A DNA stretch of 64,000 bases from Acidimicrobiia bacterium (GCA_041746105.1 JBGTHP010000025.1:154682-218681); one strand, 5' to 3'. Positions 11,226-30,105 are shown, numbered from the stretch's first letter. Translations and numbers: made by a program. The notes: a model not told the origin generated them from the letters alone.

Positions 11226-13670
11226 GTGTCAGAAATCACGGTCAGCGGTGAAGTCGGCGGCAAACAGCTGTCATTCACCACCGGCAAGTTGGCCCTCCAG
11301 GCCGACGGCGCCGTAGTAGCCAGACTCAATGGCACCGAAATGTTGGTTACCGCAACGGCATCCAAGTCGCTCCGCGAAGGGATCGACTTTTTCCCTCTGA
11401 CGGTCGACTTTGAAGAGCGGATGTACGCCGTCGGAAGGATCCCTGGATCTTTCTTCCGTCGGGAGGGACGTCCCAGCGAACAAGCCATCCTCACCTGTCG
11501 CCTGGTCGACCGACCGCTGCGCCCCTCGTTCAAGGAGGGATACCGTTGCGAAACCCATGTGGTGATGACATCACTCTCGGTTGACCCGGAAAATCCGTTC
11601 GATGTGGTCGCGCTCAATGGCGCATCGGCCGCGTTGATGGTGTCACCGATCCCGTTCGAGGGTCCGATCGCCGGCATCCGCCTCGCGCTCAAGAATGGGG
11701 AGTGGGTTCCTTTCCCGACGCACGAGGATCTCGAGCAGTCTGTTTTCGAGCTCGTGGTTGCAGGTGGCAAGAACGATTCTGGCGGCGTGGACATCATCAT
11801 GGTGGAGGCCGGCTCCACCACTGAAGGATTGCGGCTGATCGCCGATGGCGCTCCCGCCTCGGACGAAGAGTCTGTGGCCACAGGACTCGAAGAGTCAAAG
11901 GCCTACATCTCCCAGATCATCGACCTCCAGCTCGAGCTGGCATCCAAGGTCGAGAAGAAGACAGTCGAATACCCGACTGCGATCGATTACACCGACGAGG
12001 TCTACAACAAGGTTCGCAGCGCGGCCGAGGGCCGTGTCACCGAGGCGATAAAAATCGCCGACAAACAACAGCGCAACGCAGCCCAGGATGCAGCCCAAGA
12101 GGGTGTGCTCTCCGAGCTCGGGTACACCGCAGAAGGCAGTGATCCCGCAGAAGCCGCGATGGCCAAACGAGCTTTCAAGTCCGTTGTGAAGGACATGATG
12201 CGAGCCAGGGTCGTGAACGACGGGATTCGCCTTGACGGCCGAGGCGCCGGTGACCTTCGCGAACTCACCTCTGAAGTCGGGGTTGTTGGTCGGGCCCACG
12301 GTTCTGGCCTCTTCCAGCGTGGCGAGACCCAGGTGCTCAACATCACCACTCTCGGCATGCTCAAGATGGAGCAGATGATCGACTCCCTCGCTCCCGAGGA
12401 GTCGAAGCGCTACATGCACCACTACAACTTCCCGCCCTTCTCGACGGGTGAGGTCGGATTCATGCGCGGCCCCAAGCGGCGCGAAATCGGCCACGGTGCT
12501 CTGGCAGAAAGAGCGGTTCATCCGACGATTCCGACACCGGAGCAGTTTCCCTACGCTCTGCGGCTCGTTTCGGAGGTTCTTTCCTCGAACGGGTCGACCT
12601 CGATGGCGTCGGTGTGTTCGTCGACGCTCTCTTTGATGGACGCAGGGGTGCCGATCATGGCTCCTGTAGCCGGGATCGCAATGGGACTGATCCATCGTGA
12701 TGGCAAGTACGTCACGTTGACCGACATCCTTGGAGCCGAGGATGCGCTCGGCGACATGGACTTCAAAGTGGCCGGAACCGCTGACGTGATCACCGCTCTG
12801 CAGATGGACACCAAGCTCCAGGGGCTTCCTTCCGACATCTTGTCGGGAGCACTGTCTCAGGCCAAGGAGGCACGACTCAAGATCCTCGAGGTCATGAAGT
12901 CGGCGATCGCAGAGCCCCGCAGTGAGCTGAATCCCCATGCGCCCCGGATCGAGGCGATCGAAATCCCCAAGGACAAGATCGGCGAAATCATCGGACCCAA
13001 GGGCAAGGTCATCCGCGAGATGGAGGAGCAGACGGGCGCCACCATCGAGATCGAGGAAGAGGGACAGATCGGGATCGTCCGCATCGCCTCCAACGACAAG
13101 GATGTGCTGGCCGCGGCCAAGGCAAGGGTCATGATGATCGCCTTCCCGCCAGAGGCCGAAGTCGGAAAGACGTACGACGGAACCGTCGTCAACATCACGA
13201 AGTTCGGCGCGTTCGTGAACATCCTTCCCGGACGGGATGGGTTGCTTCACATTTCCAAGATGGATCCGAACCGTCGAGTCGAAGCCGCCGAAGACTACGT
13301 GACGCTCGGAGACGTGATCAAGGTCTCGCTCGATTCCGTCGACCCCAAGACGGGCAAACTCTCGCTGGTTCTCGACCAGGAATTGCCGTACAACGGACCG
13401 CCAGAAGGTGAGCGTCGTCCATCGTCGAATGATGATCGCCGTGACGATCGCAGAGGCGGGGGCCGCGACGACCGCGGTGGGCGCGATCGTGATCGTGGTG
13501 GTGACCGCGGCGGCGACCGAGGTGGACGTGGTGGTGATCGTGGCGGCGACCGAGGTGGACGTGACCGCGATAGCGGCAATCGTCAACCACAGTCATCCGG
13601 CAATGACGCCGGCAACCGCAGGGTTGCGCCGTCCTTTGACGAGTCGTTTGACAGCAGCCCCCGCGGCTAA
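11226..13670 (+). CDS. pnp: polynucleotide phosphorylase, with Arg/Gly/Asp-rich C-terminal tail
   Basis: Two RNase PH domains, KH and S1 domains recognisable. GTG start. The last approximately 90 aa are an RD/RG low-complexity repeat. Confidence 0.95.
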   Translation: MSEITVSGEVGGKQLSFTTGKLALQADGAVVARLNGTEMLVTATASKSLREGIDFFPLTVDFEERMYAVGRIPGSFFRREGRPSEQAILTCRLVDRPLRPSFKEGYRCETHVVMTSLSVDPENPFDVVALNGASAALMVSPIPFEGPIAGIRLALKNGEWVPFPTHEDLEQSVFELVVAGGKNDSGGVDIIMVEAGSTTEGLRLIADGAPASDEESVATGLEESKAYISQIIDLQLELASKVEKKTVEYPTAIDYTDEVYNKVRSAAEGRVTEAIKIADKQQRNAAQDAAQEGVLSELGYTAEGSDPAEAAMAKRAFKSVVKDMMRARVVNDGIRLDGRGAGDLRELTSEVGVVGRAHGSGLFQRGETQVLNITTLGMLKMEQMIDSLAPEESKRYMHHYNFPPFSTGEVGFMRGPKRREIGHGALAERAVHPTIPTPEQFPYALRLVSEVLSSNGSTSMASVCSSTLSLMDAGVPIMAPVAGIAMGLIHRDGKYVTLTDILGAEDALGDMDFKVAGTADVITALQMDTKLQGLPSDILSGALSQAKEARLKILEVMKSAIAEPRSELNPHAPRIEAIEIPKDKIGEIIGPKGKVIREMEEQTGATIEIEEEGQIGIVRIASNDKDVLAAAKARVMMIAFPPEAEVGKTYDGTVVNITKFGAFVNILPGRDGLLHISKMDPNRRVEAAEDYVTLGDVIKVSLDSVDPKTGKLSLVLDQELPYNGPPEGERRPSSNDDRRDDRRGGGRDDRGGRDRDRGGDRGGDRGGRGGDRGGDRGGRDRDSGNRQPQSSGNDAGNRRVAPSFDESFDSSPRG

Positions 13671-14376: not shown

Positions 14377-15081
14377 ATGCGGGTCCTCATTCTTCAGCCG
14401 GACGAATACGAGTCGGCAGGTTCCATCGGCGAGGCCTTGGTTGCCGGTGGTGCGTCCCTCGACCACTTCGTCATCCAATCCGATTTCACCTCTCCTCCCG
14501 GCGACGTCGATTTCCCCGACCTGTCTGAGCACGATGTGATCGTTGTGATGGGGAGCCCCTGGTCGGTCTACGACGAGCGGATCGAAGGATGGGTGCAACC
14601 ATTGCTGGCTCATTTGCGGAAGGCGGTCGAAACCGACGTTCCGGTGCTCGGTATCTGTTTTGGGGCCCAGGCGCTGTCAGCAGCGTTTGGCGGAAAAGTT
14701 GAACGCGCCGGCGAGACCGAATTCGGCTGGTACGAACTCGAATCGGAGTCGTCGCTCTTGCGGGGGCCGTGGTTTGAGTTTCATCACGATGTGTTCTCGG
14801 TGCCAACCGGCGCAGAAGAGCTCGCCAGAACATCGGCCGGACCCCAGGTGTTTCGCCTTGGAAGGTCGCTTGCGGTCCAATTTCATCCTGAGCTGGGGCC
14901 GGAGCTTCTGGAGAAGTGGTACCAGTCAGGTGATGAGGGGCGTCTCCAGCGCTCCGGCCTTGACACCGTTTCGGTGATGGAGCAGACAAAGGCGTTCGAA
15001 TCCGAGTCCGCCGATCGCGCCGCCCGTTTGGTCGGCTGGTTCCTCGGAGATTTCGTGGGGGAACCGACCCGATCGGACTGA
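14377..15081 (+). CDS. class-I glutamine amidotransferase-like protein (GATase1 / peptidase C26; possible gamma-glutamyl-amide hydrolase)
   Basis: VLGICFGAQ nucleophile-elbow motif and C-terminal HPE. Internal ATG at 14377 (MRVLILQPDE) is preferred over the ORF start at 14278. Confidence 0.75.
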   Translation: MRVLILQPDEYESAGSIGEALVAGGASLDHFVIQSDFTSPPGDVDFPDLSEHDVIVVMGSPWSVYDERIEGWVQPLLAHLRKAVETDVPVLGICFGAQALSAAFGGKVERAGETEFGWYELESESSLLRGPWFEFHHDVFSVPTGAEELARTSAGPQVFRLGRSLAVQFHPELGPELLEKWYQSGDEGRLQRSGLDTVSVMEQTKAFESESADRAARLVGWFLGDFVGEPTRSD

Positions 15082-15108
15082 TGCCTTCGCCGGGTCAGGT
15101 GTCCCGGG

Positions 15109-16023
15109 TCAGCCCCGGGGCGGTCTGATCCCCCGGAATTCCCAATCGCCGCCAAGTGCGGTCGACAAGACCTCCTCCGATTCAGATGGCTGGGCACCGA
15201 AGGTGTCCGGAATCGGATCCGAGCCCTGGACAACGGTGTTCGTCAACATCCCCAGTCCCTCCACCGCAACCGAAACCTCGTCACCCGGATTTACCGGGCG
15301 CGAGCCGGCCGGAGTGCCCGACAGAATGACGTCGCCTGGCATGAGGGTCATGGTGCGGGCCAGATCGGCCACGAGGTAATACATATCCCATTCCATCTCG
15401 GCAGTCGAGGCATCCTGGACTACCTCTCCGTTGACGGTGGTTCGAATCTTCTTGTTGTGGAAGTCCCAACCTTCGATCAACCCCGGACCAAGCGGGCAGA
15501 AGGTATCCGACCCCTTGACCCTGAGCATCGAGCCGGCGTCGGTGTCACGGAAATCGTGGAGGCCGTAGTCGTTGGCGATGGTGTAGCCGAGGATGTGAGT
15601 CTCAGCCTCGGCCGGAGTGACGCTACGAGTGGTGGATCCGATCACAATTGCGATTTCGCCTTCGTAGTTGAGGTATTTGCAGCCGGCGGGACGTACAACA
15701 TCGCCTCTGTGTCCGTTGAGGGCCGAGGTCGGCTTCTGGAAGTAGGTCGGTGCCGAAGGGAGCTTGGCTCCGAATTCCTCAACCCGGCTGCGGTAGTTGA
15801 GATGGATGGCGATGACCTTGGTCGGTTCGACCGGGGGCAGGTGGATGGCTTTCGCCACGTCTATGACTAGGCCTTCGGCAGTCTCGAAACGCTCGCCGCC
15901 TCCGACGAGCGTCACCGGGGAGCCGTTTAGCAGCACCCTCCGCGTTTCTTTCACCGGTCGACCGCCCTGATCATTCGGGCCCGAACGATAGCTGGTAGCG
16001 TCCACGTATGGCCGTGAGCTCAT
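15109..16023 (-). CDS. fumarylacetoacetate-hydrolase (FAH) family hydratase/decarboxylase
   Basis: Typical FAH-fold sequence (GEIAIVIG...ILGYTIANDY...DVILSGTPAG). Confidence 0.85.
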   Translation of the reverse strand: MSSRPYVDATSYRSGPNDQGGRPVKETRRVLLNGSPVTLVGGGERFETAEGLVIDVAKAIHLPPVEPTKVIAIHLNYRSRVEEFGAKLPSAPTYFQKPTSALNGHRGDVVRPAGCKYLNYEGEIAIVIGSTTRSVTPAEAETHILGYTIANDYGLHDFRDTDAGSMLRVKGSDTFCPLGPGLIEGWDFHNKKIRTTVNGEVVQDASTAEMEWDMYYLVADLARTMTLMPGDVILSGTPAGSRPVNPGDEVSVAVEGLGMLTNTVVQGSDPIPDTFGAQPSESEEVLSTALGGDWEFRGIRPPRG

Positions 16024-17267
16024 TGTTGGGCGATCGTGGTCCTGACTCGGCTGACATCACCGATCACGAGACCTATGTCCGCGGTGTTCCTTATGCCACC
16101 TTCGCCAAACTTGCGGGTAGCGGACCGGTGCTCCGGATTCATGAGTTCGATGGGGGTTGGCACTGGGGTGTCGTCGGCCACGCCGAGATTTCCGAGGTCG
16201 GGAGGGCCTGGGATCGGTTCACCACGACTCGCGGGATTCGCCTGGAGGAAATGGATGAAGAGGCCCTCCATCATCGACGCACGCTGATGGAACACGACCC
16301 ACCCAGCCACACCCGGCTGCGACGAATCCTGCAGGGTGGATTCACCCCCAGAGTTGTCGCGGGATTTGAAGCCGCCTTTCGTGCGCTCACAGGGTTTGTC
16401 CTCGATCCACTGATCATCGAAGGGCGCTTTGATTTCGCAGACAGAGTGGCAAGGGCCCTGCCTGTGCGGCTTCTGTGTCGACTTCTCGGCGTACCCGACG
16501 CAGACGCCGATTTGCTCGTTGGTTGGACCGACCGCCTTGTGTCGAATACCGATCCCGATTTCGTGGTGGGGCAGGACGCCGAAGGAGATTGGCGGCTGCT
16601 TCCGTTTCGGAGCCGGGCGGCGCTGGAGGTATTCCGATATGCGGAGGCTTGTGCGATGGCGCGCCGTGCCGATCCAGGCGACGACGTGGTATCACGGTTG
16701 CTTGGTGCCACCGTCGACGGTCACCCGCTCACCGATCTCGAGTTCAAGAACTTCTTCACGCTCCTCATGGTGGCCGGAAACGAGACGACTCGCCACGCCA
16801 TCAATCACGCCGTGAGTCTGTTGATCGACCACCCGGAACTCTTGGAAGAGGTCCCCCCTTCGTTCGGTTCTGAGGCAGTGGAGGAACTGCTCCGTGCCGC
16901 CTCCGTGACCATGCACTTCCGTCGGACCGCCACGGTTGACACCGAACTCGGGGGGCGAGCGATTCAGGCGGGGGACAAGGTGGTGATGTGGTACGTGGCG
17001 GCCAACGTTGCGCCAGAAGTCTTCGACGATCCCCATGTTTTGAGGATGGACCGTTCACCCAACCCACACTATGCGTTCGGGGTAGGACCCCACCATTGCC
17101 TGGGGGCATCGTTTGCTCGATTGGAATTGAGGGTCGTGATCGAGGAGTTGATTCGACGCGTTTCTGGTATCCGACTCGGAGGTGAGGTCGTTCGCCTTCG
17201 ATCGAATTTCCACAACGGGATCAAACACCTGCCGGTGGTCGTGATGGCACGGGGAGACGGTCAATAA
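16008..17267 (+). CDS. cytochrome P450
   Basis: Heme-binding loop FGVGPHHCLGASFARLE. ETTRH I-helix region. Approximately 419 aa. Confidence 0.85.
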   Translation: MAVSSLLGDRGPDSADITDHETYVRGVPYATFAKLAGSGPVLRIHEFDGGWHWGVVGHAEISEVGRAWDRFTTTRGIRLEEMDEEALHHRRTLMEHDPPSHTRLRRILQGGFTPRVVAGFEAAFRALTGFVLDPLIIEGRFDFADRVARALPVRLLCRLLGVPDADADLLVGWTDRLVSNTDPDFVVGQDAEGDWRLLPFRSRAALEVFRYAEACAMARRADPGDDVVSRLLGATVDGHPLTDLEFKNFFTLLMVAGNETTRHAINHAVSLLIDHPELLEEVPPSFGSEAVEELLRAASVTMHFRRTATVDTELGGRAIQAGDKVVMWYVAANVAPEVFDDPHVLRMDRSPNPHYAFGVGPHHCLGASFARLELRVVIEELIRRVSGIRLGGEVVRLRSNFHNGIKHLPVVVMARGDGQ

Positions 17268-17268
17268 C

Positions 17269-18063
17269 ATGTCCGGAATGGACGGTTTCCTTTTTCCTCG
17301 AACCGCTCGCGGTGAGAGTTCGCTGCTGCCTCCTCCACCGTGGCATTACTCGGGCGAAATGCTCACCGTCGAATACCGGACGGACCCTGTAAATATTCGA
17401 GCGCTGCTCCCCGATGGAGTTGAGCCCCTCGACGATGACCCTGGAGCGGTGGCGCTGATCTGGGCCGACTGGCAGAGTTGTTCCGACCGCTTCGACGAGA
17501 TTCTTGATCCAGTTCGCAGCCAGTACAAGGAGGCGTTCTTCGTTATCCGCTGTCGATATCAGGATCGGCCGTATTCCCGATGTCCATTGATCTGGGTGGA
17601 CAAGGACTTCGCCCTGGTCCGTGGATATCACCAGGGATATCCGAAGAAGCTCGGAGAAATCTGGATGACCCGACCGGTTTCGATCGGGCGCGCCGGACCC
17701 CGGCTGGAACCAGGCGGTCGCTTTGGCGCCACGCTGTCTTCAAATGGCCGCCGGCTGGCCGAGGCGCGTTTTTCGCTGGTTGAGCCCACCGATCGCCCTG
17801 GTTTCGTCAATGCCCATCCCATGCTCCACAACCGCTGGTTTCCGGCGATCGAATCGGACGGTTCCGACAGCGTCGACGAACTGGTGACGATGAGTGGGTA
17901 TGACGGCGCGATCGCCGACGTGTGGCGAGCGGATGCCGAGTTGGCCTTGGGAGCCAGCCCCACCGACGAGTTGGAGCTGCTCACTCCCATTGAGATCATT
18001 GGCGGGTTTTATCACAGAGTTGGTGTCTCGTGGCGTGCGGGCACCACGCTCGAACGCCGATGA
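17269..18063 (+). CDS. acetoacetate decarboxylase-like (ADC superfamily) protein
   Basis: N-terminal PPPWHYSGEML motif characteristic of the ADC-like family (MppR-like). Confidence 0.65.
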   Translation: MSGMDGFLFPRTARGESSLLPPPPWHYSGEMLTVEYRTDPVNIRALLPDGVEPLDDDPGAVALIWADWQSCSDRFDEILDPVRSQYKEAFFVIRCRYQDRPYSRCPLIWVDKDFALVRGYHQGYPKKLGEIWMTRPVSIGRAGPRLEPGGRFGATLSSNGRRLAEARFSLVEPTDRPGFVNAHPMLHNRWFPAIESDGSDSVDELVTMSGYDGAIADVWRADAELALGASPTDELELLTPIEIIGGFYHRVGVSWRAGTTLERR

Positions 18064-18542
18064 GCCAGGATCGCGATGATGACATTCGAAGGGTTGTGGG
18101 CGGCGGCCACGACTTCGAGTCGATGGCTGCGGTCCTCAATGTGTACCGGGCGGCGACCTCGATCCGAAATCAGATCGAGCGAAAACTCCTGAACCGCCAT
18201 GGGCTCAGTTGGGGAGGGTTCACCGCGCTGTTCGTGCTGTGGATCTGGGGGCCGATGGAGTCTCACCGCCTGGCCGACGAATGCGGCCTCGCCAAGGGAA
18301 CGCTCTCGGGCGTGTTGACCACCTTGGAACGACGAGACCTGATTCGACGAAACCGGCTCAGCTCCGATCGCCGGCGAGTCGAGGTCGTGGCCACCGGCGC
18401 CGGGCTCGAGTTGGTCAAGGCCGTCTACCCGGAATTCAACCGGCTCGAAACCGACGTGACATCGTCGTTGACGGGAGAAGAAAAACGTCTCCTTGCCGAC
18501 ATGTTGGGACGGCTCCGTCGAACCGCAGAAGGAATTGGTTGA
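18060..18542 (+). CDS. MarR-family transcriptional regulator
   Basis: Winged-helix region (GPMESHRLADECGLAKGTLSGVLTTLERRDLIRR...DRR). ATGA overlap with the upstream stop. Confidence 0.8.
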   Translation: MSQDRDDDIRRVVGGGHDFESMAAVLNVYRAATSIRNQIERKLLNRHGLSWGGFTALFVLWIWGPMESHRLADECGLAKGTLSGVLTTLERRDLIRRNRLSSDRRRVEVVATGAGLELVKAVYPEFNRLETDVTSSLTGEEKRLLADMLGRLRRTAEGIG

Positions 18543-18600
18543 CGGGACGATCGGTCACAACATATCGTTTGGGGCCGAATGATCGAGAGAGAGGACGGCT

Positions 18601-19476
18601 ATGGGTGAGATCGTCGGCGTCGGATTGGTCAGCCACGTGCCTACCACCATGCTGCCAGAGGCGACTCGCCTCGAGCTGAACGATGGCAAAGAACTGAGCT
18701 TCATTCCAGGCTATGCCAGGCTTCGTCGAGAGGTGCTCGATCCGCTCGAGGCCGACACGATCGTCATTTTCGACTCACACTGGTTCACAACTGTCGAGCA
18801 TGTCGTCTCTTCCCACGAACGACGAGCGGGGGTGTTTACCAGTTCGGAGCTCCCAAGGGGTATGGCCCAACTCACCTATGACTATCCGGGAGACCCAGAA
18901 CTCGGTCGGGCGGCGGCGCGGATCGGCGCCGAGCTTGGAACACCAACACATGCATCAGAAGATCCCTACCTGCCGGTCTACTACGCCACGACCAACCTCG
19001 TTCACTTTCTCCGCCGCGACGAACGAGTTGTTTCGGTGAGTGTGGTCCAAACCGGGGAGACCGAAGATTTTCTCACCATGGGCGCCGCAATCGGAGCGGC
19101 AGTGGCGGAGGTCGACCGGCGGGTAGTGCTCTTTGCCTCCGGAGGCATGAGTCACCGGTTCTGGCGGCTCAAGGAATTGGTCAAGCATGAAGCTTCTGAT
19201 CCGGTTCACATCACCTCGCCAGATGCCCGTGCCGCGGATCTCGAACGGATCGAATGGATGAAACAAGGACGCCACGACTTGATCATCGACGGAATGGACA
19301 ACTATCTCCGGCACCATCCTGAAGGTGACTTCGGGCACTACTTGATGATGGTTGGGGCGGTCGGCGGGAAAGCCTGTGTCGCCCCGGGACGTATGTATTC
19401 GGAGTATGAGAGCTCGGCGGGCACCGGGCAGGTCCACATGTGGTTCGACCGCCCGGATCGGGGTTGGAGCGGCTGA
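18601..19476 (+). CDS. class III extradiol ring-cleavage dioxygenase (LigB family)
   Basis: LigB-family features (VIFDSHWF...GGMSHRF). Approximately 290 aa. Confidence 0.8.
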   Translation: MGEIVGVGLVSHVPTTMLPEATRLELNDGKELSFIPGYARLRREVLDPLEADTIVIFDSHWFTTVEHVVSSHERRAGVFTSSELPRGMAQLTYDYPGDPELGRAAARIGAELGTPTHASEDPYLPVYYATTNLVHFLRRDERVVSVSVVQTGETEDFLTMGAAIGAAVAEVDRRVVLFASGGMSHRFWRLKELVKHEASDPVHITSPDARAADLERIEWMKQGRHDLIIDGMDNYLRHHPEGDFGHYLMMVGAVGGKACVAPGRMYSEYESSAGTGQVHMWFDRPDRGWSG

Positions 19477-19487
19477 GGACGCGCCGG

Positions 19488-20636
19488 TCAGCGCGAGCGG
19501 CCGGTGGGAGAGTCAGACATCGTCAGGGATTGTCGATTTTCGAGTGTGAATCTGTCCTCCGGCTTCCAGCGTCCCATCGCCATTCCGGCAACATATTCGC
19601 CAACCACCGGCGCATGCTTGAAGATCGAGCCCGAACCTCCCCCGGCAAAGATCACGTCCGGTTGCTCTGGATGAAAGTCCAGCAAGAAGTGGGTATCCGG
19701 GGTCATCACGATCTGGCACACCCTCTGGTCCATGATCGGTTGTTGCGCCAACTCCGGGAAGCGATATGAAAGGTACTGCCGGCTCCGGGTGAGGGCACCC
19801 TGGTCCACCACCCGGTCGTCGTTGTCGAGGTCGATGTCCGTTTCGTGCCACGCGATTACGGCCTTGAACCCGCATCCTTCGACATCCGGAATCCCGTAAC
19901 CGGGGTAGCCGTGATCGATCCAAACCGGATGGTTGTCGGCGTGATATCTGGTGCTACCCGGCGGGGGCGCGGTGTAGATCACGTCCTGGCGCACAACCCG
20001 CAGCACTCGTCCCAGGGTTTGTCGATACATCTGGCCCATCCATGCCCCAGTCGCCACCACCGTCCGATCCGCCTTCAGCGGCTCCCCGTCCAGTTGGAGT
20101 CTTTCTTTGGCGCCGGTGCTCGGTCGTCCCAGTCGGAACCGCCCTCCGAGTGTCTGATACTCCTCGAACGCCCTGACCAGCGCTCGTCGTGCCCAGATGA
20201 ATCCTGCCTCGGGTTCGAATATGGCGAACTCGACCCGCTGGAAGTTCATGTGCGGATAACGCTGTTCCAACTCGTCTCTGGCAAGGCGAAAAGCTGGTAT
20301 CCCGAGGCGTTCCAGCGTCGGCAGGGCTGCTGCTTCCCAGGCGGAATGGCCGGTGGCCGCCATCACCAGACCACCGGTCTGGCGGAAGAGTTCGGTGTTC
20401 CAGTCGCGACCCAATTCCAGCCAGCGTTGCCGCGACTCATACTGCCAGCGGGTATACAGCTCGTCTGCGCCGTGAGCAGACCGGGTCACCCGGTGATGAT
20501 CAGAGGAGGCCGCCCTGGCATGTCCCGGCTCCCAGCCGTCGTACAAAACAACGTCACACCCCTGTTTTCGCAGCTCCAATGCAGTCATCACGCCTACGAT
20601 GCCAGCACCGATTACGGCGTATCGAGTGGCGGTCAT
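19488..20636 (-). CDS. FAD-dependent oxidoreductase (DAO family; sarcosine-oxidase-beta / PuuB-like amine oxidase)
   Basis: N-terminal YAVIGAGIVGVMTALEL Rossmann (GxGxxG). Start taken at the internal M (MTATRY...). Confidence 0.8.
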   Translation of the reverse strand: MTATRYAVIGAGIVGVMTALELRKQGCDVVLYDGWEPGHARAASSDHHRVTRSAHGADELYTRWQYESRQRWLELGRDWNTELFRQTGGLVMAATGHSAWEAAALPTLERLGIPAFRLARDELEQRYPHMNFQRVEFAIFEPEAGFIWARRALVRAFEEYQTLGGRFRLGRPSTGAKERLQLDGEPLKADRTVVATGAWMGQMYRQTLGRVLRVVRQDVIYTAPPPGSTRYHADNHPVWIDHGYPGYGIPDVEGCGFKAVIAWHETDIDLDNDDRVVDQGALTRSRQYLSYRFPELAQQPIMDQRVCQIVMTPDTHFLLDFHPEQPDVIFAGGGSGSIFKHAPVVGEYVAGMAMGRWKPEDRFTLENRQSLTMSDSPTGRSR

Positions 20637-20669
20637 GGCTCTCCCGGGGTCGCTTTCACGTCGCTTGAA

Positions 20670-20683
20670 TACTGTATACAGAA
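20670..20683. promoter_or_regulatory. palindromic operator-like motif tACTGTATACAGaa (site 1 of 4) in the divergent promoter region between the FAD-oxidase gene and the GS-like/BMC operon
   Basis: Perfect 10-bp palindrome CTGTATACAG at 20672-20681. Related motifs at 34236, 36346 and 36858. Confidence 0.55.
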
Positions 20684-20722
20684 TAGCTAGGGTCGCGCCA
20701 GCACAACCGAGGAGGATCATTG

Positions 20723-22012
20723 ATGGCGGCGCTCGATGAGGGCATCACAACGGTGGTGATGGGGATTGGCGACCTCAACGGCATCCTCCGCGGCAAGCGC
20801 ATCCCGATCTCGCACTGGCCAACGATCCGCGAGGAGGGGATGGCGCTTTCCAACGCCATCTTCGCCATGGACATGAATTGTGACATCTGGGACACACCCT
20901 ACGCCAACATGGGGACCGGTTACCCCGATGTCAGGGTGTTCCCGCTTTCGGAGAAGCCCCACCTGATGCCCTGGGATCCCGGCGCGGCGTTTGTGATGGG
21001 AAGGGTCGAAAAAGAACACGGCGGCCCACTCGAGATCGACCCGCGCAACGCTTTGGTGAAGGTCACGGAGAAGGCCAGTTCCATGGGACTGAACGTACTG
21101 ATCGGGGCCGAGCTCGAGTTCTTTTTGCTCGATCCGGAAACCCTCCAACCCCGGGACAGCGGCATCCAGGTCTATGGGTTGGAGCGAGCGATGGAACTCG
21201 AACCCGTTCTGGGCCCGATTCGCGACCAGTTGGTGGCGGCGGGCATCCCGATCGAACAGTCCAATCCGGAATATGCTCCCGGCCAGGTCGAGGTGAACAT
21301 CCGGTACTCGGACGCCCTCGAAACCGCCGACAGGGTGGTGGCATTCCGTGGCATGGTCAAACAACTGGCCGTGACGCATGGGTATGTCGCCTCCTTCATG
21401 GCCAAACCGTTCTTCGAACACTCCGGAAACGGCTTCCATGTGCACCATTCGGCAACCGACGATTCGGGCAAGAATCTCTTTGCCTCGGGCGGCCATCTAT
21501 CGGACCTGGGGACGTCGTATCTCGCCGGGTTGCGCAAGCACATGATGGAACTGGCAGTGTTCTCGGCTCCCAACCCAAACGCCTACCGGCGCCGGCAGCC
21601 TTACACCTTTTGCCCGATCAACAACGCATGGGGAGTCGACAATCGTACGGTCGGCCTCCGGGTGATCGAAGGACCGGACAAGATCGTGCGTGTCGAGCAG
21701 CGAGACGCGTCAGCCGACGCCAACCCGTATCTTCTGCTCGCGGGCCAGATCGCCGCCGGTTTGGCCGGCATCGAGGGTGGCTGGGACCCGGGGCCGGCAG
21801 AGACAGGCGATGGATACGCCAACGAAGCTGCAGATCCGCTCCCGCTGGAGTTAGGCTCGGCTATCGCTCTCGCTCAAGACTCAAACCTGATCAAATCCGT
21901 GTTCGACCCTGATCTGTTGGGTATCTATCTCAGTCAGGCGGCGAGAGAGATCGAATTCATCGGTGCCCAGGTCACGCCGCTCGAGCGTGAACGTTATCTC
22001 CGGAGCTTCTGA
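20723..22012 (+). CDS. glutamine-synthetase-like gamma-glutamyl-amine ligase (GlnA3/GlnA4/PuuA/GmaS-like)
   Basis: GS catalytic motifs GAELEFFL, NPEYAPGQVEVN, SGNGFHVHHS, NPNAYRRR and NRTVGLRV. Approximately 430 aa. RBS GAGGAGGA 7 nt before the ATG. Confidence 0.85.
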   Translation: MAALDEGITTVVMGIGDLNGILRGKRIPISHWPTIREEGMALSNAIFAMDMNCDIWDTPYANMGTGYPDVRVFPLSEKPHLMPWDPGAAFVMGRVEKEHGGPLEIDPRNALVKVTEKASSMGLNVLIGAELEFFLLDPETLQPRDSGIQVYGLERAMELEPVLGPIRDQLVAAGIPIEQSNPEYAPGQVEVNIRYSDALETADRVVAFRGMVKQLAVTHGYVASFMAKPFFEHSGNGFHVHHSATDDSGKNLFASGGHLSDLGTSYLAGLRKHMMELAVFSAPNPNAYRRRQPYTFCPINNAWGVDNRTVGLRVIEGPDKIVRVEQRDASADANPYLLLAGQIAAGLAGIEGGWDPGPAETGDGYANEAADPLPLELGSAIALAQDSNLIKSVFDPDLLGIYLSQAAREIEFIGAQVTPLERERYLRSF

Positions 22013-22317
22013 TGAGATTGGCACGCGTCGTCGGTACGGTCACCGCAACCACCAAAGATCGGGCACTGGAAGGGCATCGGTTTCTGGTTGTCGACCTGGT
22101 CGACCCCGACGGTGTCGTCATCGACCCGCATCACGTTGCTGCGGATGCGGTAGGCGCCGGCACCGGCGACTTGGTCCTGGTGACTTCAGGGTCCTCGGCG
22201 AGGCAGGCACAGCGAACAGTCGCCCTTCCCGCGGATTTGGCCGTTGTCATGATCGTTGACGAGATCGCAATGAGCGGACAGGGTGAGGCTTTGTCCAAGC
22301 ACAAGAAAGGAAAATGA
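22012..22317 (+). CDS. bacterial microcompartment vertex protein BMC-P (EutN/CcmL/PduN family)
   Basis: MRLARVVGTVTATTKD...GHRFLVVDLVD...VAADAVGAGTGDLVLVTSGSSAR matches the EutN/PduN pattern. tgATG overlap with the upstream stop. Confidence 0.9.
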   Translation: MRLARVVGTVTATTKDRALEGHRFLVVDLVDPDGVVIDPHHVAADAVGAGTGDLVLVTSGSSARQAQRTVALPADLAVVMIVDEIAMSGQGEALSKHKKGK

Positions 22318-22320
22318 GTG

Positions 22321-22602
22321 ATGGCAGATCAGATTGCCCTGGGCATGATTGAGACGCGGGGGGTGGTGGCGTCGATCGAGGCCGCCGATGCGATGGTGAA
22401 AGCCGCAAACGTGGCACTCGTCGGGCAAGAAAAGGCGGGCGGCGGCCTGGTTGCCGTTTTTGTCCGCGGCGAAGTTGGAGCCGTCAAAGCGGCGGTGGAT
22501 GCCGGCGCAGTCGCTGCGAACAAGGTTGGCGAAGTGATAGCCGTTCACGTTATCCCGCGCCCGGCGACCGAGATCGAGGGCATCCTCCCTCAGACGTCTT
22601 GA
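22321..22602 (+). CDS. bacterial microcompartment shell hexamer protein BMC-H (PduA/EutM/CcmK-like)
   Basis: [58 protein letters not shown]...VHVIPRP is near-identical in pattern to PduA. Confidence 0.95.
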
Positions 22603-22610
22603 ACTGATCG

Positions 22611-23780
22611 ATGACGACCGCGGGTTTCCATGAGGCGGTTGCGGCGTTTTCTGCGCCGGTTTCGGCTCGCCCCGACCCCAGAACGCCGGCTCGGGTCACC
22701 GTGCTCGGCTCGGGGGTTGAGGGTCGCGCCCTCGCGGCATGGTTCCTGGCAGAAGGCGCAGACCAGGTCAGTCTCTTCTCGGTGTACCAAGATGAATTGA
22801 CGGCACTTGCCCGAGGATCGATCACTCTGCGCGGAGACGGGCCGGTGGGGACATTCCGAGTAGGGGGCGAGGCCCCGTCGATCGCGTCGACATCGGTTTT
22901 GGATCGGTCGGTGGAAGGTGCCGATCTGGTCGTGATTTCGGGCCCCGTGCTGAAACAACGGACCTATGGGCTGGTGGTCGCCCCTTACCTACACGACGGT
23001 CAAACAATCTTGGTGGTTCCTGGTCGGTCGCTGGCGGCCCTCGAACTCCTTCAATCGATCCGTGCCGGTGGCAGCACCGCCGATGTGCGCTTGGTGGAGG
23101 TCGATGATCTACCTTTTGACATCGGCGTCGATGGGTCGACTCTGACGTTGACCCGGCGCCGGACCGTCAGAGCCGGTGTCTACCCCGGCTCGGCCACATC
23201 GGTTCTAGAGGGTTTGCGTCGTTTTTTCCCGGAACTGGTTTCCGCCACGTCGGTCCTCGATTCGACCCTTGGCGACGGTTCGGGCATCGTCTCGATCCCG
23301 GCGCTCCTGGTGGGCGGACCCGGCGCACCACCCATCGAAAGTGCAGGACCTCCCGGTGCGGTGTTGCTGAACCCGAACACTTTCCGCGGGCTGATCGGGG
23401 ATGCCCAAATACAATTGGTGGCGGCGTTGGCAGACGAGCGCAGAGAAGTGGCGAGTCGCTTTGGGTTGCGTGCGCTCCCGAGCGACGAAGAATGGTTGGA
23501 TGCCGTGGCAGGCTCCACAGAGGGCACTGGAGTGCGAGCAGTCCCTGACGAAGCCACCGCCCGCAGTCTGCTTCGAGATGCGGTGCTCGGCTCCCTTGTC
23601 CCCTTGACGTCGATGGCGAACGCCGCCGGCGTCGCCGCCCCGGTCACGGAAGCCATGATCGAGTTGTCGGAGCGCGTTCTTGGGACCGCGCTGCGAGCCA
23701 GCGGCAGGAATCTGGATCTCTGCGGGCTAGGGGGCCTGAGTGCGCCCGAGATTCGGGCCCGGCTGGCGGTGGCGTCGTGA
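22611..23780 (+). CDS. NAD(P)-binding oxidoreductase, opine-dehydrogenase-like (Rossmann N-domain plus helical C-domain)
   Basis: VTVLGSGVEGRALAAWFLAEG dinucleotide motif resembles opine DH (VLGLGNGGHAFAAYLALKG). Approximately 389 aa. 8-nt gap after BMC-H. Family assignment is tentative. Confidence 0.5.
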   Translation: MTTAGFHEAVAAFSAPVSARPDPRTPARVTVLGSGVEGRALAAWFLAEGADQVSLFSVYQDELTALARGSITLRGDGPVGTFRVGGEAPSIASTSVLDRSVEGADLVVISGPVLKQRTYGLVVAPYLHDGQTILVVPGRSLAALELLQSIRAGGSTADVRLVEVDDLPFDIGVDGSTLTLTRRRTVRAGVYPGSATSVLEGLRRFFPELVSATSVLDSTLGDGSGIVSIPALLVGGPGAPPIESAGPPGAVLLNPNTFRGLIGDAQIQLVAALADERREVASRFGLRALPSDEEWLDAVAGSTEGTGVRAVPDEATARSLLRDAVLGSLVPLTSMANAAGVAAPVTEAMIELSERVLGTALRASGRNLDLCGLGGLSAPEIRARLAVAS

Positions 23781-25159
23781 CCGATGCCGACCTGAGAAGT
23801 ATCGCCCAGGCGCGGCGCGCAGTAGAGGCCGCCCATGTCGCCCAGCAGCGATTTCTTGCCACCGATCCGTCACGTATCGACGAGATCGTCGAGGCGATGG
23901 CGCGTGCGGTCGAGATCGACGCCGCCCGACTCGGCGCGCTCGCAGCCGAGGAGACCGGCTACGGCAACGCAGAGGACAAACGAATCAAGAACCTCTTCAA
24001 CTCGATCGGAGTCGCAGAGTGGCTGCGCAACGTCAAGACTCTTGGAGTCCTATGGCAAGACCCGGTTACAAAAGTGGTGGCGATAGGCGAACCGATGGGG
24101 GTAGTGGTCGCCCTAATCCCGGTAACCAACCCGACCTCGACCATCATCTTCAAAGTGCTGTCTGCGGTGAAAGCCGGCAATGCCATCGTGTGTGCACCAC
24201 ATCCACGCGGGGTCGGGTGCGGAATGGAAACCGTAAAAGTGATGATGACTGCGGCGGCCGAGCACGGGGCGCCGGACAACCTGATCCAATGTCTTTCCGA
24301 GGTGACCGTCGAGGGCACCCAGGAGCTGATGCGCCACCGCCGGACGTCGGTGGTCATGGCGACCGGGGGATCGGCGATGGTTCGAGCGGCCTATTCCTCC
24401 GGTAAACCGACCCTGGCGGTGGGCCCAGGGAACGTGCCCGTGTACGTCCATGCGTCGATGCGCGACGAGCTTCGCGAAGTCGCCGATCAAATCCTCACGT
24501 CCAAGTCGTTCGACTACGGCACGGCGTGCGCAGCGGAGCAGGCCGTGGTCGTCGACAGGGCCGTCGCCCCGCTGCTCGAACAGGAGGTCCGCCAATTGGG
24601 CGGCTACTTCTGCACGACGGGTGAGGCAGCCAGACTGGCCGATGTGATCTTTGACGACAACCAGGTGATCCGGCCTGGGGGAGTGGGGCAGTCGGCCTCC
24701 GAACTCTCTCGCAGGGCAGGTTTTGGAGTTCCCCCCAACACCCGTGTTCTCCTCGCCCGTGAGAGCGAGGTCGGACGAAACCGCCCACTCTCGCTCGAGA
24801 AACTGAATCCGGTGCTGGCCTGGTACGACGCCCCGAGTGAGGATCAGGCGTATGAACTGTGCTTCCAGATCTTGCGATTCGGCGGTAGGGGTCACACTTC
24901 GGCGATCCACACCAAAGATCCCGCCATTGTCGCCCGGTTTGGCCGCCTACCGGCAGGAAGGGTCCTGATCAACCAACCGGCGCTGATGGGGGCAATGGGA
25001 TACTCGGCCGACCTCGAACCGAGCTTCATGCTGGGCACGGGGACCGTATCTGGCTCGATCGTGTCAGACAATGTGACCGCCTTGCATCTGATCAACATCA
25101 AACGTGTCGCCTACGAGTCGAGACCGTGGCGCAGCATCTACGACGTATACGGAGCGTGA
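23777..25159 (+). CDS. CoA-acylating aldehyde dehydrogenase (EutE/PduP family)
   Basis: Approximately 460 aa with FDYGTACAAEQ active-site region (cf. FDNGxxCxSEQ). Lacks the ELGGKSP/GQxC motifs of hydrolytic ALDHs. Sits between shell genes. Confidence 0.85.
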   Translation: MTDADLRSIAQARRAVEAAHVAQQRFLATDPSRIDEIVEAMARAVEIDAARLGALAAEETGYGNAEDKRIKNLFNSIGVAEWLRNVKTLGVLWQDPVTKVVAIGEPMGVVVALIPVTNPTSTIIFKVLSAVKAGNAIVCAPHPRGVGCGMETVKVMMTAAAEHGAPDNLIQCLSEVTVEGTQELMRHRRTSVVMATGGSAMVRAAYSSGKPTLAVGPGNVPVYVHASMRDELREVADQILTSKSFDYGTACAAEQAVVVDRAVAPLLEQEVRQLGGYFCTTGEAARLADVIFDDNQVIRPGGVGQSASELSRRAGFGVPPNTRVLLARESEVGRNRPLSLEKLNPVLAWYDAPSEDQAYELCFQILRFGGRGHTSAIHTKDPAIVARFGRLPAGRVLINQPALMGAMGYSADLEPSFMLGTGTVSGSIVSDNVTALHLINIKRVAYESRPWRSIYDVYGA

Positions 25160-25161
25160 CC

Positions 25162-25791
25162 ATGAACCGACCTGGAACCGTGGTCAGAGCCCTGCTTCAG
25201 ATCGATCGACTTCAGCCAAAATTCGCCGCCTACAACGGTGCCACCGTTCAGGGGTCTATTCCCCTCGCCGGGGACACGATCCTCGTTGGCGAGATGGCGC
25301 CAGGCAACGAGGTGTTCAGATTGATCGACACCGCCTTGAAAGCAGCCACCATCGAGGCGACCAGCCAGATCGTGGAGCGCGAATTCGGGTTCTTCATCCT
25401 CCGATCACCCAGTAATGCGGAGATCAGCGCAGCCCGCGACGCGATTCTGGCCCATCTCGGGATCACGATGTCCGATCGGCTGAAACCGGTCGTGGAATCT
25501 ACCCAGATCATCACCTCGGTTGAGCCCTATCAGGCCCAACTTCTCAACAAATGGCGCAAAGGGTCCCTTCTGGTACCCGGCCAAACTCTCGGCATCGTCG
25601 AATGCGCTCCCGCTGCCTATATCTCGATAGCGGCCAACGAGGCCGAGAAGTCGGCCGATATCGACATCGTCGAGGTACGCGCGGTCGGCCGTTTCGGTCG
25701 ATTCTTCATGTCGGGATCGGAAGCGGCGGTTGAGACCGCAATGGAGGCGGCCGTCATCGCACTCCAAGCGGTAGAAGGAAGGGCCCAGTGA
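25162..25791 (+). CDS. tandem-domain BMC shell protein (BMC-T-like)
   Basis: Two approximately 90-aa BMC-like halves. The second half (TLGIVECAPAAYISIAANEAEKSADIDIVEV...GSEAAVETAMEAAV) is a clear BMC domain. Confidence 0.7.
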   Translation: MNRPGTVVRALLQIDRLQPKFAAYNGATVQGSIPLAGDTILVGEMAPGNEVFRLIDTALKAATIEATSQIVEREFGFFILRSPSNAEISAARDAILAHLGITMSDRLKPVVESTQIITSVEPYQAQLLNKWRKGSLLVPGQTLGIVECAPAAYISIAANEAEKSADIDIVEVRAVGRFGRFFMSGSEAAVETAMEAAVIALQAVEGRAQ

Positions 25792-26999: not shown

Positions 27000-27526
27000 T
27001 GGGTTTCGAAGAAGTCGAGTTCGGGTCTCGCAAGGTTGTGGCCGTGAGCCGGCCTTCCAAGCCGCGTAAGCGTGAGGGCCGGGCAAGCACGCAGAAGCCC
27101 GATCCATCGGAGCCGCCGGCCGACACGGGAGCGGTCCTGGTTCCCCTTGATCAGTGGACGAGTATTCTCAACCAACTCGGAAACCTCCACCAGGCGGGTC
27201 AGCAGATGGCCGACGCCAGGGAACGGGCGGCGAAGGCCGAAACGGAAGCCTTTTTCCTCAAGGAGCGGCTGCGGGAATTACGAGAGGAACTTGCCAAGGC
27301 GAGAGCTGCGGCCACGGAATTCGTCAACAGCACCGCATCCGTCGACACCGAAGTGGCTCCAACCGACACCGGGGTCACTGCGACCGGCGATCCGGCAAGC
27401 GGCGCAAGCGAAATCGGCCAAGTCCAAGAAGACGAAGACGTCGCCATTGACCTCACCACCGACCGGGTGCTCATTGTCAGGCTTCCGAGCAGAGTCACCA
27501 AATGGTGGCTCGAGCGGCGGACCTGA
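26999..27526 (+). CDS. hypothetical coiled-coil protein
   Basis: ATGA overlap with the upstream stop. E/K/R-rich helical composition. An alternative-frame ORF (27072-27545) looks like an Arg-rich translation artefact. Confidence 0.45.
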   Translation: MGFEEVEFGSRKVVAVSRPSKPRKREGRASTQKPDPSEPPADTGAVLVPLDQWTSILNQLGNLHQAGQQMADARERAAKAETEAFFLKERLRELREELAKARAAATEFVNSTASVDTEVAPTDTGVTATGDPASGASEIGQVQEDEDVAIDLTTDRVLIVRLPSRVTKWWLERRT

Positions 27527-27545
27527 TGAGAAAGCCGACGGCGCT

Positions 27546-28457: not shown

Positions 28458-28488
28458 TCGGACTGCCGGTCCGATTGGGTCGGATTCG

Positions 28489-29658: not shown

Positions 29659-29673
29659 CAATCCGGGTCCTGG

Positions 29674-30105
29674 TTGAATCCGGGGATGACAACAAAACCG
29701 CGACTGGGTCACCAGCAGGCGAAGCTGATCGTGGACGAGATCGGAAAGCAGCTCGAGGCACATGACGAAGGGGCGGCCGTCGCCGTGGTCGACGATCACG
29801 GCGAGCTGATGGCATTCTTCCGGACGGACCGATGCCGGCTTCCGTCGATCCAGATCGCGATCAACAAGGCGTACGCCGCCGCCAGAGAACAAATCGAATC
29901 GGCCGAACTGGGAGCGCGCTCACGGGAGGAGGGCTGGCCGATGACCAACTTCGGTGATCTGCGGTATCCGAGCTGGGGCGGGGGTGTTCCGATCCGGATC
30001 GACGGGGTGGTGGTCGGTGCGGTAGGGGTGAGCGGGCTGGCAGAGGCCCGCGACATCGAGCTGGCGCGGGCCGGGGTGCGGGCAGGCGTCCGTGCCGACG
30101 GCTGA
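29674..30105 (+). CDS. GlcG/DUF336 heme-binding-like protein
   Basis: GAAVAVVDDHGELMAFFRTD...GGGVPIRIDGVVVGAVGVSG pattern of DUF336 (also found as the PduO C-terminal domain). Confidence 0.7.
   Translation: MNPGMTTKPRLGHQQAKLIVDEIGKQLEAHDEGAAVAVVDDHGELMAFFRTDRCRLPSIQIAINKAYAAAREQIESAELGARSREEGWPMTNFGDLRYPSWGGGVPIRIDGVVVGAVGVSGLAEARDIELARAGVRAGVRADG

Follow-up and report, generated by a model that had tools for sequence, protein, structure and literature searches.

A GntR-linked MIC2 microcompartment locus of an Acidimicrobiia bacterium and a proposed glutamate-mediated route of amine oxidation

The 64,000-nucleotide stretch of DNA analysed here, hereafter the window (Acidimicrobiia bacterium, GCA_041746105.1, JBGTHP010000025.1:154682-218681; G+C content about 61%), carries an operon for a bacterial microcompartment (BMC) that is headed by a gene for a protein resembling glutamine synthetase (GS). 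Judged by gene content and order, this BMC is an Acidimicrobiia member of the catalogued type MIC2, not a new type. On balance, we lean towards reading the region as MIC2 together with GntR-controlled neighbours, which jointly would encode a route of amine oxidation by way of glutamate, patterned on the N-methylglutamate (NMG) pathway. An earlier note on this DNA had seen in it the hallmark of a Puu- or Ipu-type scheme, in which an amine is gamma-glutamylated, oxidised or hydroxylated, and finally deglutamylated. The conserved partners point instead to an NMG-type route through N-alkylglutamate, because they comprise a trio of MgsABC-like subunits, an oxidase resembling monomeric sarcosine oxidase (MSOX), an opine-dehydrogenase-like enzyme and a RidA protein. 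By analogy, the conserved core appears closer to the NMG pathway than to Puu or Ipu.

Genes were identified from a listing of open reading frames (ORFs) combined with Pfam and NCBIfam profile scans of the window. All six genes or gene sets named in the earlier note were recovered where it had placed them and matched the families given for them; its list was incomplete, omitting the MgsABC-like trio, RidA, the GntR regulator, a DUF3156-like gene and the enzymes of the BMC operon. The comparison covered 11 loci with a BMC operon, namely the window, seven Acidimicrobiia metagenome-assembled genomes (MAGs; L001, L003, L007, L008, L010, L011, L013) and three loci with Proteobacteria-type gene sets (L014, L017, L018), of which L017 is the cultured Ruegeria sp. 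ANG-R. Relatives without a BMC were also compared (L004, L015/L016; marine metagenome contigs).

The MIC2 operon and its enzymes

The operon and the divergent oxidase gene beside it are arranged as follows.

19488-20636, minus strand: MSOX-like FAD amine oxidase of the DAO family (PF01266, E 8e-44)
20671-20682, unstranded: putative GntR operator O1, palindrome ACTGTATACAGA, in the divergent promoter of the DAO and GS-like genes
20723-22012, plus strand: predicted GS-like gamma-glutamyl-amine ligase (Gln-synt_C, E 5.8e-84)
22012-22317, plus strand: BMC-P vertex protein of the EutN/CcmL family (PF03319, E 1.7e-25)
22318-22602, plus strand: BMC-H hexamer shell protein (PF00936, E 2e-27; EutM-like, 110 bits)
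22611-23780, plus strand: opine-dehydrogenase-like NAD(P) oxidoreductase, 389 aa (AF2 model, Foldseek and profile search)
23777-25159, plus strand: CoA-acylating, EutE-like aldehyde dehydrogenase (AldDh; TIGR02518, 480 bits)
25126-25791, plus strand: BMC-T shell protein of the double-domain CcmP/CsoS1D type (PF00936; CcmP model, 207 bits; start codon uncertain)
25788-26999, plus strand: LDH-like malate dehydrogenase (MDH) with an N-terminal extension of about 100 residues (PRK06223, 324.8 bits)

Sutter et al. (2021, Nat Commun; PMC8217296, supplementary type descriptions) catalogued MIC2 from 22 loci in Proteobacteria together with two Actinobacteria, assigned it no function and already named its GS gene (pfam00120). 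The window is placed in this type because the locus of Ruegeria sp. ANG-R, whose BMC-P carries the label MIC2 in the catalogue's tree file (PMC8217296), is the L017 of the present sample and is collinear with the window (RA27_04045; protein identity 57-79%, with 57% for the GS-like protein, 67% for AldDh and 79% for MgsC). Where the flanks of the 11 loci reach, they share the order DAO, GS-like gene, BMC-P, BMC-H, oxidoreductase, AldDh, BMC-T and MDH, and the trio of Mgs-like genes, RidA, GntR and a transporter go with them. Of the genes listed in the earlier note, the GS-like gene, its divergent DAO and a transporter are conserved together in this way.

The proteins of the window also correspond one by one to the catalogue's description. 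The shell set consists of PF00936, PF03319 and a CcmP-like double-BMC protein, with no other shell genes in the 11-42 kb part of the window. The pfam00171 aldehyde dehydrogenase without an encapsulation peptide is the EutE-like protein, and the pfam02866 LDH/MDH, with an N-terminal extension of about 70 aa in the catalogue, is represented by a protein in which Ldh_1_N starts at residue 100 of 403. A protein of the 6PGDH-like superfamily with a short N-terminal helical encapsulation peptide is found in the 389-aa oxidoreductase (AF2 helix at residues 3-14), and the pfam00120 gene is the GS-like gene at the head of the operon. The catalogue text makes no mention of the Mgs-like trio, the MSOX-like oxidase, RidA or the GntR operator, nor of the opine-dehydrogenase nature of its '6PGDH-like' protein. 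The Acidimicrobiia version of MIC2 has an APC permease and a DUF3156-like gene where others have an ABC system, and some of its loci gain a nitrilase-like gene and a pair formed by a class-I glutamine amidotransferase (GATase1) and a cytochrome P450.

The GS-like gene begins with an ATG at 20723, preceded by the ribosome-binding site GAGGAGGA, and its stop overlaps the start of BMC-P. Its position as first gene of the BMC operon, pointed out earlier for the window, recurs in 11/11 loci. That it keeps all GS catalytic motifs, as stated in the earlier note, is true of its metal, ATP and glutamate residues and fails at the ammonium site. In an alignment with E. coli GlnA, residues E129, E131, E212, E220, H269, H271, R321, R339, R344, E357 and R359 are kept, and at the ammonium site S, I, V and F stand where GlnA has D50, S53, Y179 and E327; replacement of the same kind is seen in the aligned IpuC, GmaS, PuuA and a TdnQ-like protein. 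The protein falls below every NCBIfam equivalog cut-off, scoring 228.6 bits against 469.6 for TIGR03105 (GmaS/GlnT, 'type III'), 192 against 429 for TIGR00653 (type-I GS) and 182 against 650 for NF045547 (PuuA). Searched against the PDB, it is matched best by GS-like ligases, NpaA1 (8wwu) among them.

A neighbour-joining tree with 200 bootstraps, which is small, distance-based and weak at its deeper nodes, unites the MIC2 ligases with the non-BMC relatives L004 and L015 (62% identity) and a Mesorhizobium loti plasmid protein (53%) in one clade with 100% bootstrap. This clade stands apart from IpuC (35-38% identity), GmaS/GlnT (33%), the TdnQ-like protein (32%), PuuA (31%) and GlnA (25%), so that the protein does not cluster with GlnA1, the outcome by which the earlier note's reading would have been refuted. 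The loss of the ammonium-site residues and a clade separate from GlnA, GmaS, IpuC and PuuA support the prediction of a gamma-glutamyl-amine ligase, as that note had suggested.

The 389-aa oxidoreductase is the '6PGDH-like' protein of MIC2 and, according to its model, has the fold of opine dehydrogenases and ketopantoate reductase. The AF2 model (pLDDT 90) contains a helix at residues 3-14 followed by a disordered linker; compared with CENDH and octopine dehydrogenase, this amphipathic helix belongs to an N-terminal extension of about 25 residues. The best Foldseek match is 1bg6 (E 7e-22, TM 0.74/0.82), with octopine, yersinopine and pseudopaline dehydrogenases ranking next, and a profile of the family matches 1bg6 over its full length (E 5.7e-54). 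The catalytic His202 of CENDH (1bg6) aligns with a near-invariant Glu228 of the MIC2 family; the carboxylate-binding Arg292 of CENDH is conserved, and its Asp lies one column off in the HMMER alignment. The window enzyme therefore shares with the opine dehydrogenases (CENDH, 1bg6; octopine dehydrogenase, 3c7a) the full-length fold, the profile match and the Arg, and differs from them in the N-terminal helix extension and in having Glu in place of the catalytic His. Its close family comprises about 114 of 117 matching protein clusters, and every member examined, in the 11 loci, sits in a MIC2 operon. The protein is a candidate signature enzyme of MIC2.

The DAO gene is transcribed divergently from the GS-like gene across a spacer of 86 bp and is present in all 10 loci that reach its position. 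It had been described as PuuB-like or sarcosine-oxidase-like, and the second description is the one that stands. The protein scores 123 bits against MSOX (1el5) and keeps the equivalents of Cys315 (flavinylation) and Lys348 (carboxylate binding), and its NCBIfam matches, N-methyl-Trp oxidase with 183 bits and soxA_mon with 163 bits, stay under the cut-off. No similarity to PuuB was detected at E 1e-3, and no match to SoxB/MgdB.

AldDh is a protein of 460 aa whose residues 3-449 align to positions 1-446 of TIGR02518; because the profile spans nearly its whole length, it has no N-terminal or other terminal extension. Its catalytic Cys lies within FDYGTACAAEQ. The catalogue places the MIC2 aldehyde dehydrogenase nearest to the AldDh of MIC1 and RMM1 (PMC8217296). 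The score of MDH exceeds the cut-off of PRK06223 (324.8 versus 283 bits), and its motif GRPRSPGMSR holds the equivalent of Arg102. A Pfam scan of the MDH N-terminal extension gave no match, and the cupin/EutQ likeness reported in the catalogue was not reproduced. Homologues of the BMC-T protein in other loci bear a CsoS1D_N domain.

The Mgs-like trio and a shared GntR operator

A second, largely opposite-facing block of genes lies at 31-38 kb of the window.

31180-32601, minus strand: MgsC-like FMN subunit with a glutamate-synthase domain (PF01645, E 2e-94)
32586-33278, minus strand: MgsB-like GXGXG subunit (PF01493)
33275-34219, minus strand: MgsA-like class-II amidotransferase subunit (GATase_6/7)
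34237-34248, unstranded: putative GntR operator O2, upstream of the MgsA-like gene
34279-34881, minus strand: DUF3156-like gene for a conserved protein of roughly 200 aa, lying between the permease and MgsA genes
34878-36293, minus strand: APC-family permease (PF13520)
36340-36358, unstranded: putative GntR operator O3, tandem half-overlapping sites upstream of the permease gene, with a close copy at 36347
36426-36821, minus strand: RidA-family imine/enamine deaminase (PF01042, E 3.5e-19)
36859-36870, unstranded: weak operator-like site with 3 mismatches, between RidA and GntR
36907-37602, plus strand: GntR/FCD regulator (PF00392, PF07729)

The trio has the gene order A, B, C of the canonical N-methylglutamate synthase cluster of pRL11 and is present in 9/9 loci whose flanks reach that far. 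With its start at 34219, preceded by GGAGG, the MgsA-like protein begins MCGIA and so has an N-terminal nucleophile Cys. Identity to the canonical subunits is 33% for MgsA and 36% for MgsB, and 55-56% for MgsC (pRL11 and Paracoccus NMG clusters); identity to the Ruegeria copies is 55%, 67% and 79%, respectively. Sequence comparison thus suggests that the three subunits are paralogues of MgsABC, most divergent in the subunit to which the gamma-glutamyl amide is expected to bind.

Relatives without shell genes carry the same module. In L004 and L015/L016, the Mgs-like trio lies directly upstream of a gene for a ligase of the same clade (62% identity), accompanied by RidA, and L015/L016 additionally carry GntR and an ABC transporter. 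The index of the contig collection lists one such ligase sequence (P0042) in 112 blocks. The non-BMC set of ligase and Mgs-like genes may accordingly represent a widespread paralogue of the methylamine pathway.

RidA is 53% identical to the RidA that closes the BMC operon of Ruegeria and is also found in L003, L014, L015 and L018. The best NCBIfam models for the permease are those of a generic amino-acid transporter and an ethanolamine permease, both matched far under the cut-off; its place is taken in the Proteobacteria loci by a transporter of the BCCT type or by an ABC system with Peripla_BP_6. Homologues of the DUF3156-like protein (51-61% identity) occur in L001, L003, L007, L008 and L011 and are absent from the Proteobacteria loci; the window copy has no Pfam match, and a weak match to DUF3156 was obtained in L003 only.

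The start of the GntR gene was revised from 36823 to 36907, since homologues align from MKFERLE. The protein is 59% identical to that of L003 and 41-44% identical to the Proteobacteria and M. loti copies (43% for that of M. loti pML2037). Its predicted binding sequence is ACTGTATACAGT. Seven matches were observed in the window against 0.85 expected, and 0/100 shuffles reached seven. The sites mark four promoters in the window, those of DAO/GS-BMC, MgsA, the permease and GntR. The O1 palindrome recurs in the same intergenic region of L001, L003, L007, L008, L010, L011 and L017, with variants in L014 and L018, and sites equivalent to O2 are found in L001, L003, L007, L008, L011, L014, L015 and L017. 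Ruegeria has the operator ahead of the ABC genes and in two spacers, GntR/MgsA and DAO/GS. Equivalent promoters therefore carry the same palindrome in the loci of both phyla, and one putative GntR operator ties the shell operon, the Mgs-like trio, the MSOX-like oxidase, RidA and the transporter into a predicted regulon. In L018, the DAO/GS intergenic region (7344-7763) measures 420 bp, and the operator is preceded there by two direct repeats of about 190 nt.

A proposed pathway and its alternatives

The scheme builds on gene families, their conservation, the common operator, the active-site pattern of the ligase and the opine-dehydrogenase fold, all observed directly; each reaction, enzyme location and substrate in it is a prediction. 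A small primary amine would be imported by the permease and converted by the GS-like ligase, with ATP, to a gamma-glutamyl amide. The MgsABC-like complex would shift the alkylamine to the alpha-carbon of glutamate, its amidotransferase subunit with the N-terminal Cys acting jointly with the GXGXG and FMN subunits to form N-alkyl-L-glutamate, and RidA would remove stray imines. Oxidative cleavage of the N-alkylglutamate would yield glutamate and an aldehyde, which would be converted to acyl-CoA inside the shell, and the fused MDH would re-oxidise NADH with oxaloacetate. The favoured aldehyde-forming enzyme within the shell is the opine-dehydrogenase-like protein, which is placed there because it is the sole carrier of an encapsulation-type helix. 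The MSOX-like oxidase would be a cytosolic enzyme of the same or a side specificity. Glutamate-forming saccharopine dehydrogenase, a member of a different family, offers a precedent for the NAD-dependent conversion of an N-alkylglutamate to glutamate and an aldehyde. The EutE-like and RMM1-related character of AldDh suggests a short-chain aliphatic amine as substrate, with an aldehyde that is C2-C3 or otherwise short.

The likeness to the NMG pathway (GmaS, MgsABC and MgdABCD; Rhizobium johnstonii pRL11) consists of the GS-like ligase, the three-subunit complex in the order A, B, C, a flavin enzyme of the sarcosine-oxidase superfamily and nearby FCD/GntR regulators. The differences are considerable. 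The window ligase and MgsA/B are 33-36% identical to the canonical proteins and MgsC 55%, a monomeric MSOX-like oxidase stands where the NMG pathway has the heterotetrameric MgdABCD, which the region lacks, and folate-linked genes are missing from the window. In addition, the window has shell proteins, an acylating aldehyde dehydrogenase, MDH and the opine-dehydrogenase-like enzyme.

The EUT and RMM1 compartments (ethanolamine; 1-amino-2-propanol/aminoacetone) likewise confine a short-chain aldehyde derived from an amine and turn it into acyl-CoA by an acylating aldehyde dehydrogenase. The aldehyde comes from a B12 lyase in EUT and from a kinase and a phospho-lyase in RMM1, whereas in MIC2 it would arise via glutamate conjugates. 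MIC2 also lacks an alcohol dehydrogenase and a phosphotransacylase, and MDH would fill the slot of redox recycling.

The most specific form of the proposal, in which a short-chain amine is converted to an N-alkylglutamate by the NMG paralogue, enters the shell in this form and is released as aldehyde by the encapsulated opine-dehydrogenase-like enzyme, with malate/oxaloacetate recycling NAD+, is tentative. If it is true, MIC2 would provide the first case of a microcompartment substrate being prepared through ATP-dependent glutamate conjugation, and all shell traffic except CoA would consist of dicarboxylates.

Several points weigh against this NMG-like scheme. MIC2 loci are known from genes alone. 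Two conserved enzymes could cleave the secondary amine, which makes the aldehyde-forming enzyme ambiguous; the MSOX-like oxidase is chemically the more natural oxidase of N-alkyl amino acids and may be the aldehyde maker in place of the favoured enzyme. Known opine dehydrogenases act at the carboxyl-bearing carbon, a reaction that would turn the N-alkylglutamate into 2-oxoglutarate and free amine and would be futile, and the MIC2 family has Glu228 instead of the catalytic His of CENDH. With identities of just 33-36% to the canonical subunits, the MgsA- and MgsB-like proteins may perform different chemistry. GATase1 and one of the P450s recur and yet have no role in the scheme. No phosphotransacylase is present, which leaves CoA recycling unexplained. 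The transporter families vary by lineage (APC, BCCT, ABC) and give no consistent hint of the substrate; the Ruegeria ABC binding protein gave weak Leu/Ile/Val-type matches only when compared with the PDB.

The alternative that survives best is the Puu/Ipu-type scheme, in which the gamma-glutamylated amine is hydroxylated by a P450 and/or oxidised by DAO, GATase1 removes the glutamate and an aldehyde or amino-aldehyde enters the BMC, with a second P450 and an aldehyde dehydrogenase (ALDH) included. The genes concerned, besides those already given, are the following.

14377-15081, plus strand: class-I glutamine amidotransferase / C26-like hydrolase (GATase1; PF00117, E 2.6e-14)
16008-17267, plus strand: cytochrome P450 'a' (PF00067)
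37603-38826, minus strand: cytochrome P450 'b'
38823-40280, minus strand: HpaE-like NAD ALDH (best match HpaE, 475 bits, below the cut-off of 638)

GATase1 has a partial Peptidase_C26 match and a visible triad, with the Cys in GICFG and the His-Glu in FHPE. Homologues (43-46% identity) adjoin DAO in L001, L007, L008, L010 and L011, and in Ruegeria a homologue (34%) follows MgsC in the same operon. GATase1 is therefore a recurrent accessory and a candidate gamma-glutamyl-amide hydrolase. P450a, 44.6% identical to P450b, has homologues (69-70%) directly after GATase1 in L008, L010 and L011, and this GATase-then-P450 order is that of the Ipu clusters on Paenarthrobacter pTC1/pTC2. The nearest plasmid homologue of the ligase, on M. 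loti pML2037, is accompanied by a P450, a reductase, an APC permease, a PuuD-like hydrolase and the related GntR, with an operator-like TTGAATACTGAATTCAGT upstream of the P450, to which both window P450s are 40% identical. The content of the M. loti cluster and the gene order of pTC1/pTC2 make an Ipu-like branch credible as an accessory route for this ligase clade.

As an account of the whole system, the Puu/Ipu-type scheme is nevertheless unlikely. P450a is missing from L001, L003, L007 and all Proteobacteria MIC2 loci, and P450b and the NAD ALDH are absent from the other ten loci. No operator was found near GATase1/P450a or P450b/ALDH in the window, even with 3 mismatches allowed, and no ferredoxin or reductase genes lie near the window P450s. 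DAO is MSOX-like, with no similarity to PuuB, and the universally conserved MgsABC-like trio and opine-dehydrogenase-like enzyme would be left without a role. GATase1 and P450a, which the earlier note had counted as pathway members, are plausible accessories that recur in part of the family and do not belong to its core. Its inclusion of P450b and the NAD ALDH finds no support, given their restriction to the window, the missing operator and their position among homoprotocatechuate-like genes.

The Ipu (isopropylamine) pathway consists of the ligase IpuC, a monooxygenase and the hydrolase IpuF. The P450 system of Paenarthrobacter aurescens pTC1/pTC2 has been assigned to the hydroxylation of gamma-glutamyl-isopropylamide (PMC6776027). 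Common to the window and the Ipu pathway are a GS-like ligase whose ammonium site is replaced in the same way, a permease of the amino-acid type, a GATase with a P450 after it, and aldehyde dehydrogenases nearby. The window ligase belongs to another clade than pTC IpuC (35-38% identity), the window P450s are 27-28% identical to the pTC2 P450 and lack ferredoxin/reductase genes, and the Ipu clusters have neither an Mgs-like trio nor shell genes. Puu (E. coli PuuA, B, C, D) follows the same logic of ATP-dependent gamma-glutamylation of an amine, oxidation and glutamate removal. PuuA is 31% identical to the ligase, PuuB has no similarity to DAO, GATase1 scores 31 bits to PuuD, and the window ALDH is 38% identical to PuuC yet not conserved in the other loci. 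The gamma-glutamylation route for ethanolamine in Roseobacter (PMC10132767) was considered and set aside as Puu-like and lacking an Mgs trio.

A less probable alternative is that an opine-type compound (an N-carboxyalkyl amino acid) is imported and cleaved by the opine-dehydrogenase-like enzyme and DAO, the GS-like and Mgs-like proteins re-assimilating or detoxifying the amine. The opine-dehydrogenase fold with its encapsulation-type helix and the amino-acid-type transporters are in line with it, and an LDH/MDH-family enzyme could reduce the freed keto acid. Classical cleavage, however, gives a keto acid, whereas the conserved acylating dehydrogenase needs an aldehyde; moreover, the operon begins with the ligase gene, whose stop overlaps the BMC-P start. 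The non-BMC relatives keep the ligase and Mgs trio without an opine dehydrogenase, and the amine module is therefore the ancestral core.

Slightly less probable again is a true methylamine (N-methylglutamate) pathway with a compartment that confines formaldehyde. The enzyme families are those of the NMG pathway, and relatives of MSOX and N-methyl-Trp oxidase typically demethylate N-methyl amino acids. The ligase, by contrast, reaches less than half of the GmaS/GlnT cut-off, is 33% identical to GmaS and falls in another clade; MgsA and MgsB are as distant from the canonical subunits as stated above, and there are no MgdABCD and no folate-linked genes like those beside the canonical cluster. AldDh, for its part, is nearest to the acetaldehyde-type EutE and, in the catalogue (PMC8217296), to the AldDh of MIC1/RMM1. 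That the GS-like protein is an ordinary glutamine synthetase capturing ammonia from the compartment, as the intact metal, ATP and glutamate residues and the name 'glutamine synthetase' given to homologues in public sources might suggest, is highly improbable in view of the replaced D50, S53, Y179 and E327, the type-I GS score (192 of 429 bits), the 25% identity to E. coli GlnA and the separate clade.

The NMG-like reading matters because MIC2 is a catalogued type without an assigned function or signature enzyme, and the operator link across two phyla gives it a specific biochemical hypothesis, testable in the cultured strain Ruegeria sp. ANG-R. If it is true, BMC chemistry would come to include amines conjugated to glutamate, the marine methylamine pathway would prove to have a widespread paralogue that acts on a different amine, and an opine-dehydrogenase fold and a malate dehydrogenase would count among BMC core enzymes. 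Searches of the literature for MIC2 function, for BMCs with N-methylglutamate or gamma-glutamylation and for N-alkylglutamate found nothing relevant, and no paper was found that covers the wider regulon, an NMG-like logic of the locus or the identification of the '6PGDH-like' protein as opine-dehydrogenase-like. The earlier remark that a coupling of BMCs to gamma-glutamylation is uncharacterised thus holds insofar as no paper describing it was found, although the BMC type itself was already catalogued.

Flanking genes and the operon tail

Genes resembling those of homoprotocatechuate meta-cleavage flank the MIC2 regulon on both sides (15109-19476 and 37603-40280). They include an HpaG-like FAA hydrolase, an MppR/ADC-fold enzyme, an HpaR-like MarR regulator and an HpaD-like LigB protein, with the HpaE-like ALDH on the far side. 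The FAA hydrolase, ADC-fold, MarR and LigB genes occur in the window only and in none of the other ten loci. Together with these Hpa-like genes, P450b and the ALDH look like a separate aromatic-acid pathway. The flanking LigB, FAA-hydrolase and ALDH genes led to the ARO (aromatic) BMC type being considered, and it was rejected. According to its paper, the ARO locus combines ARO-type shell proteins and an IclR regulator with a two-subunit 2-aminophenol dioxygenase encoded alongside the shell genes, and GS, P450 and LDH all go unmentioned there; the window has a single LigB gene apart from the shell genes, and its regulators are MarR and GntR.

GAF-domain genes adjoin the GATase1-P450 pair in L008 (3628-4509) and L011 (5152-6873, GAF-GGDEF), and such genes also adjoin the pTC1/pTC2 Ipu genes (L020, 14506-16290; L025, 9366-11270). 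Between P450a and DAO in L008 and L011, no redox partners were found, the genes there encoding GAF or GGDEF proteins.

Downstream of MDH, the operon continues co-directionally in a tail of four lineage-specific genes (26999-30105, plus strand).

26999-27526, plus strand: orf175, 175 aa with a coiled-coil stretch, directly after the MDH gene
27072-28457 (ORF), plus strand: CN_hydrolase/nitrilase-like gene, true start probably near 27540
28489-29658, plus strand: GFO/IDH/MocA oxidoreductase
29674-30105, plus strand: HbpS/GlcG-like gene

A Pfam scan of orf175 gave no match. Its first 98 or so residues are conserved in L008 and L011, loci that also have the nitrilase-like gene, and it might be a BMC-associated protein. 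The CN_hydrolase gene is found in L007 as well as in these two loci. An N-terminal extension of 160 residues in the nitrilase-like ORF was rejected as an artefact: it overlaps orf175 in another frame and is absent in homologues. Among the 11 loci, the GFO and HbpS genes are confined to the window.

Upstream of the locus lies a PNPase gene in the window (11226-13670) and in two Acidimicrobiia MAGs (L010, 1957-4131; L011, 1-1512), with 76-78% identity; the chromosomal position of the locus is therefore stable in this lineage.

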